From Escherichia phage V18: a stretch of 64,000 bases of DNA. Of this stretch, positions 47,411-62,547 are shown in pieces. The position numbers were made by a program, and so were the translations under genes. Positions within the stretch are counted from its first letter, which is position 1. The number at the start of each line of letters is the position of its first letter. Location: sequence record NC_041937.1, one strand, 5' to 3'. The notes under the pieces were generated by a model. That model saw nothing but the letters and a program-made list of their open reading frames with translations. It was not told the DNA's origin and ran no database searches.

Positions 47411-47689
47411 ATGAGCTGCGAAAAATCTTTTTTCATCATCATTTACGGTAAGGATAACTGCCCACACTGTGTCAGAGCAAAAGAATTTGCAATCAGCAAA
47501 GGTCTGCCTTTTGTATATAAGACACTTGGCGATGGCTACACAAAAGAAGAGCTTATTGAGAAGTGTAGTCCAATTGTCCCCAGAACGTTGCCGCAGATCT
47601 TCTTAGAAAGCGATCTTGACAGTATCCATATAGGCGGTGCCGACGATTTCATCTCTTTTGTTAAGAATGGTTTTGGAGAGAAAAAGTGA
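47411..47689 (+). CDS. glutaredoxin/thioredoxin-like protein
   Basis: 92 aa; redox motif YGKDNCPHCVRAK (CPHC). Confidence 0.65.
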   Translation: MSCEKSFFIIIYGKDNCPHCVRAKEFAISKGLPFVYKTLGDGYTKEELIEKCSPIVPRTLPQIFLESDLDSIHIGGADDFISFVKNGFGEKK

Positions 47690-49808
47690 AAGTTGTAAAA
47701 CGGGACGGTAGAGAAGAGTTCTATAACGGAATTAAGGTGATCAAGGCGGCAGAGTCCGCCTTACTTGAGTCTGGACATACTGAAGAAGAAGCTTACCGGA
47801 TCGCCTGCGCGGTTAATGAAGTTGTTGCTAACAATCTACCAACCGACCAGTGCACGATCTCTGTAAAAAATATCCATATCCTTGTTGAAGATGCTCTTAT
47901 GGATATGGGTTTAAAATGTGCAGCCAGAGAATACATCCAGTATAGACAGACAAGAGATAATAACAGAGAGGCAGGTGGAAAACTGCTTGCAGATATTAGT
48001 GGCTTCTTGGATCGAACTTGTGATGAATTTACAAAAGAAAACGCAAATAAGCCCACTAATCATGTACACACTCATCGTGACCTGCTTGCAGGCATCCTTA
48101 GCAAACACCTTGCATCAACACAGATCCTGCCAGACCGTGTTTCAGAAGAGCACAATAAAGGCTTCATCCATGTGCATGATCTTGACTACTTGATCAGTCC
48201 GTTAACAAACTGTTGTTTGGTAAATTATCCAGATATGTTGGAAAACGGATTCAACATTGGCAACGCCCATGTCAGTAAGCCGAAGTCAATAGGGGTTGCA
48301 ACAACAATCCTTAGCCAAATCTCTAGTGCGGTAGCTAGTGCTCAATATGGTGGTCAGACTATGAGCCATATTGATCATTATCTGGCACAGTATGCTGAAG
48401 CGACCTATGAGAAGAACCTTAAATTTTGCCAGGAACATTGGTTGCCAGATGCTGAGACTGTTGCAATGCAAATGACAGATAAAGACGTGTTTGACAGCAT
48501 GCAGACGTTGCTTTATCAGATCAACACACTAACCTCGGTAAACGGTAACCCCTTTTATCACATTAAGTTTAGGTTTGGACACTTCGGTCTTTGGTAGAAT
48601 GATTACCAAAAACTACCTGAAAGTCCACAAAATGGGTCTTGGTGAAGAACGTATTACACCTGTGTTCCCTAAAGTGCTGTTCTTCCTAGAAGAGGGTGTC
48701 AACATGAACCCTGGGGATCCTAACTACGATTTGAAACGATTAGCTCTGGAATGCTGTGCAGAACGTATCTACCTGACTTCGTATCTGTACCACTAAATAG
48801 AAAAGTGACAGGCTCGACAGATGGCAAAGTAACGAGCATGGGATATGTAGAAGTTTCTTATCGAAATATAGCGACCCTGTAACAGGCGAGGAGAAATACC
48901 TTGGCAGATTTAACTTAGGCGTTGTTAGCCTTAACCTGCCAATGATTGCGGCAAAAGCTAAGACGGAAGGTGTTGATTTCTTTGCAGTTCTTGACGAATA
49001 CTTGGATCTTGCATACGAGGCTCACCTTGTAAGGGTTAATCGTCTAAAAGGAACAAAGGCGGGGCAGAACCCCATCATGTGGTGTGAAGGCGCTCTTGCT
49101 CGCCTGGATCCCGAAGAGAGTATTGATAAACTCTTCTATGACGGGTACGCTTCCATCAGTATTGGGTATATCGGTGTGTATGAAACCTGTCAGATTTTGG
49201 GTAGAGAAGGCGACAAGGCTTTAGCTCTTGGAATCCTTCAGCACATGAGAGATGCTTGTGAGCGATACAAGAAGGAAAGTAGACTAGCATTTAGCTTGTA
49301 CGGCACTCCTTCTGAGAGTCTATGCTATAAAGCTGCAACCTGTCTGGATCGTGAATATCCGGAAGTGTTGAAGCACGAGCATGAATATCTCACCAACAGT
49401 TTCCATCAGCCAGTATGGATAAATAGCTCTCCTTTTGATAAGTGGGAGTATGAGGAAGGTTTTGCTATGATCTCCTCTGGTGGCAACATCGGATACGTAG
49501 AGACACCTAACCTGAAAAACAACCTGGATGCTTTAGAGGCCCTTGTTGACTTCGGGTATAAACACATTATGTATTTTGGTATTAACCAACCTGTAGATAA
49601 ATGTCTCAAGTGTGGTTTCTCTGGTGAGTTCAGTGCAACAGCTAAAGGCTTTGTATGCCCAGAGTGTGGAAACCATGAAGAGGGAACGATCAGTGTAATT
49701 CGACGTGTGTCTGGATACCTTTCCAGTCCTAACTCCCGTCCTTACAATAAAGGTAAGCAAGCGGAAGTTATCGAGCGAGTTAAGCACTACGGAAGTTGTG
49801 GTTGCTGA
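47686..49808 (+). CDS. nrdD: anaerobic ribonucleoside-triphosphate reductase, interrupted by three frame changes
   Basis: N-terminal ATP-cone; segments resembling E. coli NrdD (ERIYPDF...KVTGS, CRSFL, RFNLGVVSLNLPMIA, glycyl-radical RVSGYL, CxxC zinc ribbon) lie in frames 1, 2, 1 and 0. Confidence 0.7.
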
Positions 49809-56938: not shown

Positions 56939-57028
56939 ATGATTGCATCAATATTAACGTTTATGGGTGGCGTGGCATTCGGATTCATTGTTTGCCTGTT
57001 TATAGTGATTATGTCTATGCGAGGCTGA
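56939..57028 (+). CDS. small membrane peptide (29 aa)
   Basis: MIASILTFMGGVAFGFIVCLFIVIMSMRG; coupled between flanking ORFs. Confidence 0.25.
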   Translation: MIASILTFMGGVAFGFIVCLFIVIMSMRG

Positions 57029-57031
57029 ATT

Positions 57032-57403
57032 ATGAAACTTTTTGAGTGGTTTAAAAAGTTTAAATATAAAGCTGTAGCCATCGTGCCGTGGTCAATTCAG
57101 TGGGTTGATGAAGGTGGTCTACCAATACCTGGTGACAAAGATACTGGGTACTGGATTATGATGGAGAACGGGTTTGGAAAGCGAAAGTATACGTGCACAA
57201 ACTCTACTCGATCTGCCACTAACTGGTCTAAATTCTACTGGGGAGCCAACGAGTGGGGAAGATACGCCACCAAATCAATGGCACTTATTGGTATAGCAGA
57301 GTACATTGCAGCCAGAGATAGGGTTGGAGACACTTATTACTATACTGCGGACGATATTCGTAACAGTGTTTACGTCCCACAACCACCTGATGGAGACCGT
57401 TGA
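57032..57403 (+). CDS. hypothetical protein
   Basis: 123 aa ORF. Confidence 0.4.
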   Translation: MKLFEWFKKFKYKAVAIVPWSIQWVDEGGLPIPGDKDTGYWIMMENGFGKRKYTCTNSTRSATNWSKFYWGANEWGRYATKSMALIGIAEYIAARDRVGDTYYYTADDIRNSVYVPQPPDGDR

Positions 57404-57627
57404 TGAAAGTTAAAGTTTTAGATTCAAGCTTCTATATTGGTCAGGAGCCCTTAGTGGGGAAAGTGTTTACTGCTGTCCCTAACGAAGATTACCCCGACCT
57501 TTTAAAAATAAAAGGGGCAGATCTTATTGCCGCTGGTGCATCTCATGAATGCTTTGACAGTCAGTGGACCTACAACTTTGCCCTAGGTGAGGATGTAGAG
57601 ATAGTGGAGGACGATCATGAAGGTTAA
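57400..57627 (+). CDS. small acidic protein, MKVK...DLIAAGA paralogue family member
   Basis: 75 aa; MKVKVLDSSFYIGQ ... GADLIAAGA ... EIVEDDHEG. Confidence 0.45.
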   Translation: MMKVKVLDSSFYIGQEPLVGKVFTAVPNEDYPDLLKIKGADLIAAGASHECFDSQWTYNFALGEDVEIVEDDHEG

Positions 57628-57871
57628 AATTCTTGATTCTAACGTCTACTTGGGACAATCCTTCCTGAAGGGAAAGGTAGTTCCTGCGGTATACTTTGAA
57701 GGGTTGCCGTGGGATGATCCTGTGCGGCAACATCACAGTTATGTAGGCCACAACGTAGTGTTTATCTTAGGATCAGACCTGATCGCTGCTGGTGCACCGG
57801 AATATTATTTCGGGGAAGAATCCTATTATGCCTTTGGGGCAGGGTCAGATGCAGATATTGTAGAGCTGTGA
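57617..57871 (+). CDS. small acidic protein, MKVK...DLIAAGA paralogue family member
   Basis: 84 aa; MKVKILDSNVYLGQ ... GSDLIAAGA ... DIVEL. Confidence 0.45.
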   Translation: MKVKILDSNVYLGQSFLKGKVVPAVYFEGLPWDDPVRQHHSYVGHNVVFILGSDLIAAGAPEYYFGEESYYAFGAGSDADIVEL

Positions 57872-57883
57872 TGGGTAACCGTT

Positions 57884-58279
57884 GTGAAAAATAAACTGTT
57901 CAAAGTTACAATGAAAATTCGCGGAGCTTGGAGCGTAAAGCAAGGGCGTATCCCAGAATTTGAGAAAGACTTCTACGTAGTCTCCACCTCGGAGGAGGCT
58001 GCATGCTGGCAGGCTGGCTATGCCTATGCAAGAACCTGGTACGAAGGATACCAGACTGGGGGCTATGACGGAGAAATTATCAGCAAGGGTGTGGAAGAAA
58101 TTAATGTGTTGACAAGTAAAAATTTTGTTATAGTGCATCCAGATTCCAGAGTGAAGCATTACTGGAATGCCAGAACAAAAACTTGGACACCGTTTGCAGA
58201 TTCTGCTACACCACTTTTAAACCAAAAAGCTCTTGACTCTGCCCCGAGCTACGGGGTTGTTGAAGAAAAGCTAGACTGA
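57884..58279 (+). CDS. hypothetical protein, paralogue of 60089-60484
   Basis: Shared C-terminal segment (V/M)(V/R)HP.S ... YW ... WTP with ORF 60089-60484. Confidence 0.4.
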   Translation: MKNKLFKVTMKIRGAWSVKQGRIPEFEKDFYVVSTSEEAACWQAGYAYARTWYEGYQTGGYDGEIISKGVEEINVLTSKNFVIVHPDSRVKHYWNARTKTWTPFADSATPLLNQKALDSAPSYGVVEEKLD

Positions 58280-58296
58280 AACAGTGAGGTGCCACT

Positions 58297-58587
58297 ATGA
58301 TGGATTTAGTTCTGAATATTGATAACGCAGGGGAGTTTAAAGACGATGGTGTAACAAGCATTGACCAACCATGCTCTGCCAAGATTGACTCAAAATGGGC
58401 CTACAAGTTTGACGGAGAGATCTTCGCAAATGATGAGAAGGTTGTAGATGCTGCAGCCATTTTGAACGCTCTAGGGTACGACCCTGTGAATTCTTTGATC
58501 AAGGATCCTGTTGAGTTTGCAGAGTATGTTCGAAAAATGGCAGATCTTGCTGTAGATATTTTAGATACTATCGATAATAAGCTGTAA
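58297..58587 (+). CDS. hypothetical acidic protein
   Basis: 96 aa ORF. Confidence 0.4.
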   Translation: MMDLVLNIDNAGEFKDDGVTSIDQPCSAKIDSKWAYKFDGEIFANDEKVVDAAAILNALGYDPVNSLIKDPVEFAEYVRKMADLAVDILDTIDNKL

Positions 58588-58593
58588 AAACTG

Positions 58594-58622
58594 TTGACAC
58601 AACGCTTCAGATTTAGTATCAT
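58594..58622 (+). promoter_or_regulatory. sigma70-like promoter upstream of HPF-like gene
   Basis: TGTTGACA-N17-TATCAT. Confidence 0.5.
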
Positions 58623-58671
58623 TGTTTTCAAAGAGAGATAGTTATTCCCTCTTCCTTAAAAGGAACACGTT

Positions 58672-58992
58672 ATGCAAATTGAAATCACTGGCAACAATGT
58701 AGAAATCACAGAAGGTATGGTATCTTTTATTTCCCGCAAAATGTCCAAGCTGGAGCGTTTACATCCCTCTGTCAACTATGCACGTGTGAGTGTAAAAGTT
58801 GAAAATGATCACCAGGAAGTTATGGCGTTCATTTTTGACAATTCTGGAAAAGAAGTTATTGCCAAAGCTAAAGGCAGTGATGCTTACGAGGCAACTGACC
58901 GTATGGTAGATGTTGCAGCACGTCAGCTGGCTAAATGCGGTGGAAAGAAAGGTAAGGGGAAAGGCAAAGTAAAGATTGACTTTGGAGAATGA
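58672..58992 (+). CDS. ribosome hibernation promoting factor / RaiA (YfiA) family protein
   Basis: MQIEITGNNVEITEGMVSFISRKMSKLERL ... YARVSVKVE ... AKAKGSDAYEATDRMVDVAARQLAK matches short HPF/RaiA pattern; own promoter and AAGGA RBS. Confidence 0.65.
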   Translation: MQIEITGNNVEITEGMVSFISRKMSKLERLHPSVNYARVSVKVENDHQEVMAFIFDNSGKEVIAKAKGSDAYEATDRMVDVAARQLAKCGGKKGKGKGKVKIDFGE

Positions 58993-59001
58993 GGTGCTAC
59001 A

Positions 59002-59103
59002 ATGGGTGTGATTAAGAAATTAGTCACAAATGTAGAGATTGCATGCTTTGAAATTATGTTTGCAATCGCAGTTGTAGTTAATGTGTTAGGTTACGGCTAT
59101 TAA
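59002..59103 (+). CDS. small membrane peptide (33 aa)
   Basis: MGVIKKLVTNVEIACFEIMFAIAVVVNVLGYGY; GAGGTG RBS. Confidence 0.25.
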   Translation: MGVIKKLVTNVEIACFEIMFAIAVVVNVLGYGY

Positions 59104-59129
59104 TATCAAATAATTGAGGAGACCTCTAA

Positions 59130-59399
59130 ATGAAAATTAAATTATTCAAAACTGAGCTGGCAGACAAAAACTGTGGACTGGTTGAAGGCATGATTGTTGA
59201 AGCACAACCAGTGGACTATATGAAGGTGGTTCGTGATGCCCTAGGTGAAGGTTTTGATCTGATGGAGCCAGCTCTGCGAGAAGATGTTATCGAGATGGCT
59301 AAAAAGCACACACCTGAAGGTTTGGTGGTGTTTGTTGCACCGGGTAACGGAGAAGAGTTGATTGTAACTCCGGATGTGTATGAGATTGTAGAGGAATAA
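59130..59399 (+). CDS. small acidic protein ending YEIVEE (paralogue family B)
   Basis: 89 aa; MKIKLFKTE ... YEIVEE; similar architecture to 60561-60821. Confidence 0.45.
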   Translation: MKIKLFKTELADKNCGLVEGMIVEAQPVDYMKVVRDALGEGFDLMEPALREDVIEMAKKHTPEGLVVFVAPGNGEELIVTPDVYEIVEE

Positions 59400-59490
59400 T
59401 CCTGCTTGGATTAGCATACTTCCTCGATAAGGAAGATTTGTAATTATTTGTGGGAAAGGAATCCCAATCTCTTACCAGAGGTGATACTAT

Positions 59491-59670
59491 ATGATTGTTT
59501 ATTTTAAAACTTCAGGTGGATACCCTGATTCTCAAAGCTTGATCGGAAAAACGTGCACAGCATACTCACCTCTTGATGAGGAGGTAAGCGATATTCTACG
59601 AAATATGTATCGGATTGACCCCCAAGAAGCTTTGATCAAAACCTTGTATTTGTCAAGGGCTCAGATATGA
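59491..59670 (+). CDS. hypothetical small protein (59 aa)
   Basis: MIVYFKTSGGYPDSQ... ORF not in track. Confidence 0.3.
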   Translation: MIVYFKTSGGYPDSQSLIGKTCTAYSPLDEEVSDILRNMYRIDPQEALIKTLYLSRAQI

Positions 59671-59757
59671 AGTCTTTGGGAGCATTCCCTGAAGCAGATG
59701 ATGATGCCGTTTATTCGTTCATGACTCCTTTTGAAGCTATGGTTGTTGGGTGATAAT

Positions 59758-59949
59758 ATGAAAGTACGCTTTATTGGTGAAACAATTCCTGTGCATCTCC
59801 GGTCTCCTGAGGATTCTGCAGATCTTGCATCTCAAAAGGCGAGAGGTTATGATAAGAAAGTAACCTCAACCGATGTAGTGCTTGAGGCTACTAGCTACCT
59901 GACCCTGCTGCATTCTTTAATCATTATGGGTACTATTTCAGCAACCTGA
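59758..59949 (+). CDS. hypothetical small protein
   Basis: Start placed at ATG 59758 (MKVRFIGETIP) within track ORF 59731-59949. Confidence 0.35.
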   Translation: MKVRFIGETIPVHLRSPEDSADLASQKARGYDKKVTSTDVVLEATSYLTLLHSLIIMGTISAT

Positions 59950-60092
59950 TGAATATCGGTGAGCTTGTATTTATTAGTGGTGGAGAAATTGTTAGCAAGC
60001 TCGGTGGCGATCCAGATGTCTTTCATGAAACCTGTCCTTTTGCATTTGTGGTAGGTTCAGATGTGGAAGTTATTGAGGAGGTGCGGTAATGG
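59949..60092 (+). CDS. hypothetical small acidic protein (47 aa)
   Basis: MNIGELVFISGGEI ... VEVIEEVR; coupled to flanking genes. Confidence 0.3.
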
Positions 60093-60484
60093 TAAGCCTA
60101 TACCGTGTCGAGTATAGCTCGGATACTGTATACAACGTAAGAAGCAAAGATCGCAGCGACAGAGTGCAAGAAATGTATGTTCTTGCCGACAGTCCGTTAT
60201 CTGCAGCGTTCAAGGCAGGGGCTCTTGCATCTCGTTGGAAATTTGAAGGTGGATCTTTCTATGAAGAAACCCTTGAAGATTCTGTTGTTATTTCTTCTGT
60301 AGAGGTTTCAGATGACTACGAAGGGAAAAAGTTCGTAATGCGGCACCCACACAGCAATATTGCGTACTACTGGGACGTTCTGAACAACGAGTGGACCCCA
60401 GATCTTCAGAAGGCTACTGTGCTAACACCGTTTTTGGCAGATAAGTTCCCACCAGAAGGTAATTTATCTGCACTGTTTCAGTAA
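60089..60484 (+). CDS. hypothetical protein, paralogue of 57884-58279
   Basis: 131 aa; shared C-terminal HP.S ... YW ... WTP segment. Confidence 0.4.
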   Translation: MVSLYRVEYSSDTVYNVRSKDRSDRVQEMYVLADSPLSAAFKAGALASRWKFEGGSFYEETLEDSVVISSVEVSDDYEGKKFVMRHPHSNIAYYWDVLNNEWTPDLQKATVLTPFLADKFPPEGNLSALFQ

Positions 60485-60502
60485 TTTTCTTGCACACAGG
60501 TG

Positions 60503-60531
60503 TTGACAACGCCAACCCTGTGTGAAATAAT
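60503..60531 (+). promoter_or_regulatory. sigma70-like promoter
   Basis: TGTTGACA-N17-AATAAT with TGTG upstream of -10. Confidence 0.4.
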
Positions 60532-60560
60532 ACCTTCATCTTAACAAGACAGGAGACCGA

Positions 60561-60821
60561 TTGATGAAGATTAAATTGAAAAACCTTGAAACGGCAGAGA
60601 TTCAGGACGGTGTTGATTTCCGTTCTAAAGATGGTGACATCTTAGAGGTAAATATTCCAACCTACGATCTGATCAAAGGTTTTGGCAACGTCCCCGAGGA
60701 AGGTATCGCAGACGTTCTTCTAATGTTAATCGTTAGTGGGACAGTGTTCTTGGGTGAAGGTGAGAACGCTATTGCAATCCCAAGCCATTTTTATGAAGTA
60801 GTTGACGAAGAGGTGCTGTAA
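60561..60821 (+). CDS. small acidic protein ending YEVVDEEVL (paralogue family B)
   Basis: 86 aa; MKIKLKNLE ... YEVVDEE; promoter 60503-60531 upstream. Confidence 0.45.
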   Translation: MMKIKLKNLETAEIQDGVDFRSKDGDILEVNIPTYDLIKGFGNVPEEGIADVLLMLIVSGTVFLGEGENAIAIPSHFYEVVDEEVL

Positions 60822-61172
60822 ATGAAAGTAGAAATTACTGGTTTTGATGTGAATGCGGTTCCGGAAGATATTTTAGCTAAACTTCCGGAAGGTTTTGGTA
60901 ACGGTGTTGTGGTGGATGCTGTTCCTCCTACCAAAGACATTCTGCTGCAGTATGGTGTAGCAGAGGAAGATGTCGATAAAGTTCTTACAATGATGGCAAT
61001 CGATCGTGTTGTCGTTGTTAAAGGTCTCGATAATTTTGAGAGTGATCCCCTGATTATTCGTGGAGATGACTACAAAATCATCGATAATGAAGGCCAAGAG
61101 TTCTATGAACCTTGTGCAGAAGATATTCTTAACTTATTACTGGAAGCAGGCACCGAAGAGGAGGACGAATAA
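60822..61172 (+). CDS. small acidic protein
   Basis: 116 aa; MKVEITGF ... acidic C-terminus EAGTEEEDE. Confidence 0.45.
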   Translation: MKVEITGFDVNAVPEDILAKLPEGFGNGVVVDAVPPTKDILLQYGVAEEDVDKVLTMMAIDRVVVVKGLDNFESDPLIIRGDDYKIIDNEGQEFYEPCAEDILNLLLEAGTEEEDE

Positions 61173-61501
61173 TGAAGATTGACCCGTTACTGAAGGCTCG
61201 TGCAGAAAAAGCGTACACCATTAAGCTGACCACCCTGGTTCCTGCTTGTCATCCGGATGTAGGTTGGCCCGAAGGTCTGGTAGAGGGGACTGTAACAGCC
61301 GCATACCTTCCTAACATCAAATACCTTATGGAAATCTTAGAGATGGATGAGGAAACTGCAGAACAGTTCCAGTTGGATATGAAACAAAGTGGGACTTTGG
61401 TTATTCACGGGTGGTATAATACTAAAGATGCAGAAGACCCTCTGGTAACTTCTAATCTGGCATATGAAATCTTAGGGCCTTTGAACCTGGGGGAAGACTA
61501 A
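61172..61501 (+). CDS. small acidic protein
   Basis: 109 aa; ends AYEILGPLNLGED. Confidence 0.45.
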   Translation: MKIDPLLKARAEKAYTIKLTTLVPACHPDVGWPEGLVEGTVTAAYLPNIKYLMEILEMDEETAEQFQLDMKQSGTLVIHGWYNTKDAEDPLVTSNLAYEILGPLNLGED

Positions 61502-61788
61502 TGAAAGATCTGGTTAAGATTAAGATTAAAGATACCAATGGAGAACTCAGCCATTTTGGAATTAATGATGGTGACGAGCTGATCGCACACTTGCCTACCA
61601 AGGAAGTTGTAAGCAAAGCGGTTGCCGGAGAAGAAGCTGCAATGCAGGCTGCAGGTGTGGATGAAAACTATGTAGCCATGTGCATGTGCCGAGATCAGGT
61701 TGTTCTGTATAAAGCGTATCGACCAAACGGAGCCACGGAGTGGCTTGTATTCCGACCTGAAGGATATGAAATCTTAGAGGCACTATGA
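61501..61788 (+). CDS. small acidic protein
   Basis: 95 aa; ends EGYEILEAL. Confidence 0.45.
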   Translation: MKDLVKIKIKDTNGELSHFGINDGDELIAHLPTKEVVSKAVAGEEAAMQAAGVDENYVAMCMCRDQVVLYKAYRPNGATEWLVFRPEGYEILEAL

Positions 61789-61877
61789 TAAATCTTGCCA
61801 AGGTTGCAATGGTCCTGCTAATTATTTGCTGGTCAGTAACCTTAACACTGTGTCTTGTATTTCAGTAAGGTGCTTAT

Positions 61878-62075
61878 ATGAACATCCTGATGTGGGTTGT
61901 AGCAGTGGCGTTTGTTGCATGTTTTTGCTGCTGGGTTGCGGTGAGGATTTCTGTAGCTACCTTCGGAAGTTGGGGTTCTCAGAGTGGGATATTAATATCC
62001 TTTCTTTTCGCAATGAAACAATCTCAGCCGCCCTGCTCTGTAAGAAATTCAAGTGGGAACCTTGTGAGGTCATGA
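61878..62075 (+). CDS. small membrane protein (boundaries uncertain)
   Basis: N-terminal helix MNILMWVVAVAFVACFCCWVAV; overlapping ORF 61826-62140 has a plausible C-terminal half in another frame. Confidence 0.3.
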   Translation: MNILMWVVAVAFVACFCCWVAVRISVATFGSWGSQSGILISFLFAMKQSQPPCSVRNSSGNLVRS

Positions 62076-62168
62076 ACTATCTAAGAACGGGGGATATCCC
62101 TGAAAGATTTAAAAAAGTTCTTGACGGCAAGGATAAATGATAGTATAGTGACTAACAAGAGGTGAGGA

Positions 62169-62309
62169 ATGACTGATTTTACTGAAGCTTTGATGATGGC
62201 CTTGTCTGTTTTAGCGCTATCGGTATGTTTTGGGGCGTTATTCACATCTCTGGTTAAAGTTTTACATACAGTATTATTACCCAAGGAGCGCAGTAATGAC
62301 GAAGATTGA
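62169..62309 (+). CDS. small membrane protein (46 aa)
   Basis: MTDFTEALMMALSVLALSVCFGALFTSLVKVL...; GAGGTGAGGA RBS. Confidence 0.25.
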   Translation: MTDFTEALMMALSVLALSVCFGALFTSLVKVLHTVLLPKERSNDED

Positions 62310-62547
62310 CTTGAATGCTGGCGACCATGTTGTTGTCAAATGCATCGGAGATTATCTTGGATTCACAATCGGCAATACTTACGAGGCGGTAGTGTCGAAG
62401 GTTTATCATGATAAAGTCCTCAGTCTTGTATTTGACTGCGATGATGATGGGGATGACCGATACGTCTGTGAGGTGCTGGCACGAGACGATAGTGAAGACC
62501 AGAAATTCCTGGTTATTGAACTGAACGGTATTTTTGTAGAACGTTAA
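62296..62547 (+). CDS. hypothetical small protein
   Basis: Start placed at ATG 62296 (MTKIDLNAGDHVVV) with AAGGAG RBS. Confidence 0.45.
   Translation: MTKIDLNAGDHVVVKCIGDYLGFTIGNTYEAVVSKVYHDKVLSLVFDCDDDGDDRYVCEVLARDDSEDQKFLVIELNGIFVER

Follow-up and report, generated by a model that had tools for sequence, protein, structure and literature searches.

A family of five small acidic proteins with a predicted SH3-like barrel fold in the rV5-like Escherichia phage V18

Results

Five Small Acidic Proteins Are Encoded Downstream of the Replication Genes

The stretch of DNA analyzed here, 64,000 nucleotides of Escherichia phage V18 (NC_041937.1; hereafter the window), contains between positions 59130 and 61788 five open reading frames (ORFs) for small acidic proteins. 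We label these S1–S5 (ORFs 59130, 60564, 60822, 61172, and 61501) and refer to the five together as family B (Table 1). A sequence-only reading of this DNA had proposed them as a run of tandemly duplicated and diverged genes. The five ORFs are present on the + strand at the coordinates claimed there, and relatives annotate them as coding sequences (CDS). For S2 the gene stands, but its start is most likely the ATG at 60564 (85 amino acids, aa), which is the start annotated in phages EmilHeitz, rV5, FV3, CM1, and phiWec189, and not the TTG at 60561. The acidity of the proteins is evident in all five (isoelectric point, pI, 4.05–4.79; net charge −6 to −21). S1 stands apart from S2–S5, with a block of three other genes (C-C-A, see below) between them. 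The counterparts in rV5 (ORF146, 150, 151, 152, and 153+154) are all annotated as "hypothetical protein." The S5 gene is intact at 95 aa in the window, EmilHeitz, CM1, FV3, and phiWec189; the rV5 reference record (L007, DQ832317, 4726–4996) divides it into ORF153 and ORF154.

TABLE 1. Positions in the window of family B and of the features around it.
Feature	Position	Strand	Description
S1	59130–59399	+	89 aa, pI 4.4; orthologue of rV5 ORF146 (phrog_11868); annotated CDS in relatives
S2	60564–60821	+	85 aa, pI 4.1; orthologue of rV5 ORF150 (phrog_12359); hypervariable slot
S3	60822–61172	+	116 aa, pI 4.05; orthologue of rV5 ORF151 (phrog_12155)
S4	61172–61501	+	109 aa, pI 4.45; orthologue of rV5 ORF152 (phrog_12457)
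S5	61501–61788	+	95 aa, pI 4.8; orthologue of rV5 ORF153+154 (phrog_12794)
Strong sigma-70-type promoter of the S2–S5 operon	60503–60531	+	TTGACA-17-AATAAT, extended −10 TG; 11 of 12 consensus matches
Weaker sigma-70-like site before a 33-aa ORF and S1	58976–59003	+	TTGACT-16-TACAAT, TG; 10 of 12 matches; candidate
Terminator-like hairpin, 20 nt past the S1 stop	59419–59435	+	weak site from a consensus scan, inferred
Ribosome hibernation promoting factor (HPF)/RaiA homologue (Ribosomal_S30AE)	58672–58992		own strong sigma-70-like promoter at 58594–58622
Family C	57403–57627, 57617–57871, 59491–59757 (phrog_13920), 59758–60089 (phrog_13661)		four small acidic paralogues
Pair A	57884–58279 and 60089–60484		131 aa each, 29% identity, E 3e-12; paralogous

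When positions 57000–62500 were compared with phage records by megablast, 119 records were found, 114 of which cover at least 80% of the query at 90–99% identity; all of these are Vequintavirus. The closest are EmilHeitz/Bas49 and a record labelled "Campylobacter phage C2" (both approximately 97.5%). We accordingly name the window as Vequintavirus by sequence identity, i.e., as DNA of an rV5-like E. coli myophage. Eighteen GenBank entries named "Campylobacter phage" (MG0656xx; host Campylobacter jejuni), unannotated in every case among those listed, are 90–99% identical to E. coli rV5-like phages in this region, which suggests that this data set was mislabelled or contaminated.

The + strand from approximately 28 kb onward encodes DNA ligase, an exonuclease, a DNA polymerase exonuclease subunit, thymidylate synthase, aerobic and anaerobic ribonucleotide reductases, and a Clp-like protease. 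Approximately 40 small ORFs form a block after these replication and nucleotide-metabolism genes, and S1–S5 lie inside that block, as does the HPF homologue.

The sequence-only reading had described the proteins by an MK(I/V)(K/E/D) start and a YE(I/V)(V/L) tail. The start holds as a homologous strand in S1, S2, and S3 but not in the other two: S4 carries an N-terminal extension of 14 residues, so that its MKID is not the homologous strand (which is YTIKL), and the N-terminus of S5 reads MKDLVKIKIK. The tail is present in four of the proteins but not in S3, which consists of the core domain with an acidic C-terminal extension and has YKII followed by 29 more residues. In the six frames of the window, a Y[EDK][IV][VLI] motif within the last 35 residues is carried by 6 of the 235 ORFs of at least 60 aa; since five of these six are S1–S5, the tail motif is not a product of chance.

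Translational coupling, likewise proposed earlier, is borne out at three junctions by the arrangement of stop and start codons. At S2/S3 (60819–60824) the TAA directly abuts the ATG, and at S3/S4 (61169–61174) and S4/S5 (61498–61503) stop and start overlap as TAATG; each coupled junction has a Shine-Dalgarno-like GAGG within the acidic-tail codons of the upstream gene. The site homologous to the promoter in front of S2 is annotated in the rV5 GenBank record as "Sigma70-type promoter; P150." The weaker candidate upstream of S1 is tentative, being without annotation in that record. An Rfam scan of the window found only three tRNAs (24.6–24.9 kb) and no RNA element in the S1–S5 region. The rV5 genome paper describes rV5 genes 82–163 as one transcription unit with E. 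coli-type promoters (PMC3606486). S2–S5 make up one operon, translationally coupled and preceded by a host-type sigma-70 promoter, that lies in the transcription unit for replication and nucleotide metabolism.

The ratio of non-synonymous to synonymous substitutions (dN/dS) was determined in six comparisons, with five Vequintavirus genomes and a divergent relative. It was 0–0.29 for all five genes (0–0.07 for S1 and 0.07–0.21 for S3), similar to the values for neighbouring genes. We regard S1–S5, on these substitution patterns and on their presence in 117 phage records, as real genes under purifying selection.

S1–S5 Form One Family of Paralogues

Pairwise identity among the five proteins is only 20–28%, and BLASTP matches between members are weak (best E 5e-4 in a tiny database). 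In PHROGs, each gene has its own family (Table 1), to which the window protein matches end to end (E 1e-54 to 1e-76); the only cross-match is that of S3 to phrog_12359 (E 0.025). Identity with the rV5 orthologues is 86–100% where the gene is intact.

More sensitive comparisons do detect a relationship, and the different approaches agree on it. Smith-Waterman z-scores against 300 shuffles were calculated for the 10 within-family pairs and for 60 pairs with 12 neighbouring control proteins; the mean z was 3.4 within the family versus 0.2 with the controls (Mann-Whitney p 9e-6), with the S2–S4 pair alone at 0.1. Alignment of subfamily profiles with hhalign gave P-values of 1.6e-7 (S1–S2), 6.4e-10 (S2–S3), 3.2e-7 (S3–S4), 2.7e-5 (S2–S5), and 3.1e-5 (S3–S5), a graph that connects all five subfamilies; the minimum P in 60 control comparisons with neighbouring families was 0.012. 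We also built hidden Markov models (HMMs) from which one subfamily at a time was left out, and ran these on 1196 six-frame ORFs. The omitted member was recovered in every case (E 9.6e-5 for S1, 1.4e-8 for S2, 1.8e-13 for S3, 1.7e-6 for S4, and 4e-8 for S5), as were the orthologues of the omitted subfamily from a divergent phage, with 60–90 residues aligned; the best of the approximately 1180 non-member ORFs had an E above 1. The HMM of the full family finds exactly five members in the window, the next match having an E of approximately 5.

A profile of the five members, searched against 1.84 billion representatives, returned 13 proteins, all of them family members or fragments and including divergent bridging sequences; two word-indexed searches contributed further members of 90% clusters. 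Common to the family are a (D/E/N)G before strand 2, an A-x-x-P-(T/N/S) motif, a methionine in helix 2, and a last-strand motif Y/W-(E/D/K/Q)-(I/V)-(V/L/I), the aromatic residue of which is Y, or W in the P0011 group. The motif glycine is invariant in the five window proteins and at least 90% conserved in wider alignments. S1 has P-V-D where the others have P-T.

It could be argued that the resemblance is merely compositional or convergent, with unrelated acidic ORFs sharing an MKIK start strand and a YEIV end strand, as the low pairwise identity, the five families left separate by the remote-homology clustering of PHROGs, the S2–S4 score taken alone, and the recurrence of similar termini without detectable homology in the neighbouring family C would allow, but this has next to no probability and is effectively refuted by the leave-one-out E-values (1e-4 to 2e-13, versus >1 for other ORFs), the hhalign P-values (down to 6e-10, versus ≥0.012 in controls), the internal motifs kept in all clades ((D/E/N)G, A-x-x-P-T, and the helix-2 methionine), and an independent structural match of S5 (see below). 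Tandem duplication followed by divergence is thus upheld by shuffle scores, profile alignments, leave-one-out HMMs, and the S5 structural match alike. We consider the paralogy of the five genes established at the level of sequence comparison. What is new in this assignment is that it unites into one family five PHROGs that have been held as separate, unannotated families.

The Array Is Old and Fixed in the Genus, with One Variable Slot

Comparison across phages showed five copies throughout the 117 Vequintavirus records, in which S2 and S3 each map to a single place. A tblastn search with S2, S3, and the additional member P0012 in 50,697 phage records matched Vequintavirus only; other Vequintavirinae-like genera gave no match. 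P0012 (90 aa) belongs to the S3 clade and lies at another locus (L003, 10001–10273; L004, 3174–3446), approximately 4 kb downstream of the DNA polymerase; it is found in none of the 117 isolates, nor in the window. L003 is a Vequintavirus-like metagenomic contig, as its DNA polymerase is 99.5% identical to that of sequenced members, which rules out an unrelated phage.

L002 and L010, both metagenomic contigs, stand for a divergent lineage in which the orthologues are 33–57% identical and the genes follow each other as HPF, S1, C, C, A, an extra 98-aa gene, S2, S3, S4, S5. The extra gene (L002, 8734–9030; L010, 4708–5004) matches Pfam PF27050 (Phage_P22_Y8K6) and sits immediately upstream of S2, overlapping the S2 start; it is not in the window. 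A 120-kb contig (L012) without megablast match in the phage collection is syntenic at 30–75% protein identity; here S1, S2, S3, and S5 are contiguous, S4 is absent, and there is no C-C-A block between S1 and S2.

In a neighbour-joining tree the sequences form five orthologue clades, with S4 sister to S3. The duplications are old rather than recent, because each copy has its own orthologue in two divergent syntenic lineages (except S4, which has none in L012); those behind S1, S2, S3, and S5 predate all three lineages, since all three carry these copies. We conclude that the five genes arose by ancient tandem duplication before the split of at least three rV5-like lineages. S4 would be either a later, S3-derived copy or one that was lost in L012.

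The exception to the uniformity within the genus is S2. Its alleles are 95–99% identical to that of the window in 22 records, 80–90% in 93, and approximately 50% in two (phiWec189 and MiataMamis), forming classes at approximately 98, 87, and 50% identity. In comparison with phiWec189, the synonymous divergence (dS) of S2 is 2.8 and that of the adjacent S3 is 0.04, and we therefore attribute the S2 differences to allele replacement by recombination. This replacement suggests that at least S2 faces a variable target.

Predicted Fold of Family B

The structure of S2 was predicted with AlphaFold2, using a 29-sequence alignment in which family members were pooled. The model is confident (mean predicted local distance difference test score, pLDDT, 90.2; predicted template modelling score, pTM, 0.78) and has strands at residues 2–5, 26–28, 61–63, 70–72, and 77–79 and helices at 34–38 and 45–58. 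The predicted family fold is a small β-barrel of the SH3-like type, with five strands and a helical insert. In the predicted layout, strand 1 (MKIKL) is followed by a long RT-like loop and by strand 2, which ends in the conserved A-x-x-P-T; a helical hairpin occupies the position of the n-Src loop, after which strands 3–5 lead to the terminal Y-E-I-V. Conservation follows this layout, with mean pairwise BLOSUM62 scores of 1.25–2.10 in the strands, 0.61 in the RT-like loop, 0.20 in the helical insert, and 0.22 in the tail. Nearly all inserted columns, and all large indels, fall in the loop, helical insert, and tail, i.e., in the variable segments.

A Foldseek search of BFVD with the S2 model gave as best match an 86-aa protein of Vibrio phage Vc1 (E 5.8e-5, template modelling (TM) score 0.67–0.68, 30% identity). 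A 95-aa protein of phage ECP32, which is an S5 orthologue with an independently made model, matched with probability 1.0 (TM score 0.58–0.64), and the third match was an 83-aa protein of CM1 (probability 0.94, TM score 0.52). As the alignment pooled all five subfamilies, the S2 model is not independent evidence of the fold of every member. The structure prediction proposed as a check on a common fold thus gives a confident S2 model on which the independent S5 model superposes, and its coverage is S2 and S5. At E ≤1, Pfam gave no match to any of the 29 family members, SH3-type models included, beyond a few isolated matches attributable to chance.

The window also encodes an acidic 83-aa protein at 62296–62547, the CM1 orthologue of which is probably the third BFVD match, an identification made by length only. 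The family-B HMM detects no sequence relationship of this protein to family B.

Neighbouring Gene Families

The genes around S1–S5 include a second set of small acidic paralogues, family C (phrog_5009, 13661, and 13920), for which most pairs are related by z-scores of 5.5–24 and hhalign P-values of 1e-14 to 2e-5. Families B and C share the block of small ORFs, similar size and acidity, and an organization as tandem paralogues; the family C proteins start with MKVK and end in D-V-E-I-V-E. Two of the family C genes are broken in the window by single-base deletions relative to EmilHeitz, at approximately 59631 (TTTT to TTT) and 59895 (AGTCT to AGCT), which leave 59491–59670 plus remainder and 59758–59949 plus 59949–60089. 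The broken genes could be either pseudogenes or the result of sequencing errors.

The AlphaFold model of family C (pLDDT 90.9) is a five-stranded barrel as well, but without the helical hairpin and with a different strand spacing. In BFVD it has numerous relatives among the small proteins of T4-like and other phages, pointing to a widespread fold, whereas family B has three matches, weak to moderate. These similarities raise the question whether B and C are a single nine-member superfamily of small barrels that diverged past sequence recognition. The MK(I/V)K starts, the acidic hydrophobic end strands, the two five-stranded models with pLDDT of approximately 90, two weak BFVD matches in common (A0A516M2G1 and A0A2H4YGF3), and the interleaving of the genes would all fit such an origin. 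Yet shuffle z-scores between B and C average approximately 0, hhalign probabilities are at most 1.8%, the family-B HMM gives E ≥4 for every C member, and the three significant BFVD matches of B are not among the top 50 of C, nor the converse. With the missing hairpin and different strand spacing of C, this makes a common superfamily improbable, and we rejected B and C as one family. Family B is limited to five members in the window, and family C is a separate family without detectable relationship to it.

The two genes of pair A complete the block. L012 has one A copy only and no C genes at this locus. The layout C-C-A … S1 C-C-A S2–S5 indicates that S1 became separated from S2 by the insertion of a duplicated C-C-A segment. 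Chimeric proteins were also seen in metagenomes: P0009 joins an unrelated N-terminus of 46 residues to the C-terminal half of S4, and P0086 and P0088 (70 aa) fuse the N-terminal half of C1 to the C-terminal half of C2. Recombination between tandem paralogues therefore occurs.

The HPF/RaiA gene is kept in the divergent L002 and L010, and none was seen in the L012 stretch. Upstream, the 123-aa ORF at 57032–57403 appears to be an in-frame fusion of two genes that EmilHeitz keeps apart (L001, 3033–3329 and 3332–3613), their junction having been lost in a deletion of approximately 210 bp; at most 64 of its 123 residues align to any one orthologue. The anaerobic ribonucleotide reductase gene nrdD is split into ORFs 47686–48597 and 48942–49808, with approximately 345 bp between them, which match positions 4–302 and 424–714 of the 718-position NrdD profile. 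Rfam found no intron in the gap at the gathering threshold; a frameshift, an insertion, or an unrecognized intron could explain the split.

Discussion

Possible Function of S1–S5

We favour the reading that S1–S5 are diverged, ancient paralogues of one family of small acidic single-domain proteins that act as binders of host or phage macromolecules, and give it a probability of about 0.6. The proteins would be made early by the host RNA polymerase and in roughly equal amounts, as judged from the promoter sequence and gene neighbourhood. They would then act as stoichiometric binding proteins (inhibitors or adaptors) on different host or phage macromolecules during takeover of the cell, with the conserved barrel serving as a scaffold and the segments that vary (loops, helices, and acidic tails) as specificity surfaces. 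Early binding of host factors is the most likely role of the family.

Several observations weigh against this reading. No sequence relative of the family members was found in Pfam, NCBIfam, PADLOC-type, or PDB searches, all five PHROGs are classed as "unknown function," and the early timing rests on promoter sequence and gene neighbourhood. Of the five proteins, only S5 has a structural match that is independent of the pooled S2 alignment. S1, S3, and S5 hardly vary within the genus (S1 99–100%), and a housekeeping function for the phage therefore fits these as well as an arms race does. 

Literature searches on rV5 ORF and gp numbers, Vequintavirus early genes, and Vequintavirus anti-defence returned nothing on these genes, and the text of the rV5 genome paper does not mention them, nor does it contain "paralog" or "duplicat" (PMC3606486).

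A more specific version, in which the genes form a diversified battery of early inhibitors that share an SH3-like barrel with helical insert not described before, each directed at a different host or defence factor and with S2 in an ongoing arms race, is possible, though we hold it to be unlikely as a whole. If true, this would make the family a new class of proteins for anti-defence or takeover of the host that only rV5-like phages have.

Less likely still is that S1–S5 serve the phage itself, as assembly or replication accessory factors or as chaperones. The near-invariance of three of the genes and the constant copy number in 117 genomes would agree with this, as would their position downstream of, and in the same direction of transcription as, the replication and nucleotide-metabolism genes; translational coupling suggests stoichiometric co-production, like that of the subunits of a complex. 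Such a role sits poorly, however, with a family that does not extend beyond rV5-like phages and a few relatives (13 of 1.84 billion representatives) and is missing by tblastn from other Vequintavirinae-like genera, with one lineage that lacks S4 and another that has an extra copy elsewhere, and with the silence of the rV5 paper's text on these genes.

We also considered acidic DNA mimicry, by which the proteins would block restriction-modification (RM) or other DNA-targeting defences in the manner of Ocr or ArdA. In favour of it, every member is small and strongly acidic (net charge −6 to −21, pI 4.05–5.1), the genes lie behind a host-type promoter, and one slot shows allele replacement. But the S2 model is a compact alpha/beta barrel with no DNA mimic among its PDB or BFVD matches, and an exceptional susceptibility to RM systems has been reported for Vequintavirinae (PMC8594841), for which reasons we disfavour this role and consider it very improbable.

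Significance for rV5-Like Phages

The rV5-like phages rank among the commonest isolates of E. coli phages and have found use in O157 biocontrol and as part of the BASEL reference collection, yet annotation is lacking for most of their early small genes. For five of these genes, the present analysis merges "unknown" PHROGs into one family and supplies a confident predicted fold with a map of conserved and variable surfaces. The promoter-driven, coupled operon with one hypervariable slot is a small and defined target for experimenters. Tandem paralogue arrays of small acidic early phage proteins are a well-known phenomenon, and a family in five copies is an ordinary kind of feature in a large virulent phage. 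The result organizes annotation and suggests experiments; it overturns nothing.

Comparison with Known Systems

The S2 model has the same order of five strands as known SH3-like barrels (eukaryotic SH3, bacterial SH3b, and the C-terminal domain of PhnA-like PA0128), and shares with these the long loop after strand 1 and a 3-10 turn before the last strand; 47–57 residues superpose at 2.1–3.4 Å. The Vibrio phage Vc1 protein (UniProt A0A6M5CA15), with which the S2 alignment at 30% identity spans 86 columns, may be a true family member outside the enterobacterial phages, on the strength of the structural match. No Vibrio record was found by tblastn at E ≤10, and the protein is not among the 13 profile matches.

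Small acidic proteins that are made early and inhibit host proteins are known from several phages, e.g., T7 Gp2, T7 Ocr, T4 AsiA, and many anti-CRISPR and other anti-defence proteins. Family B differs from these in that the searches made gave no sequence or fold match between them. By analogy, it may nevertheless be likened to them in its size of 80–120 aa, strong negative charge, and apparent expression from host-type promoters, as well as in its location among small ORFs and in the allelic turnover at one slot.

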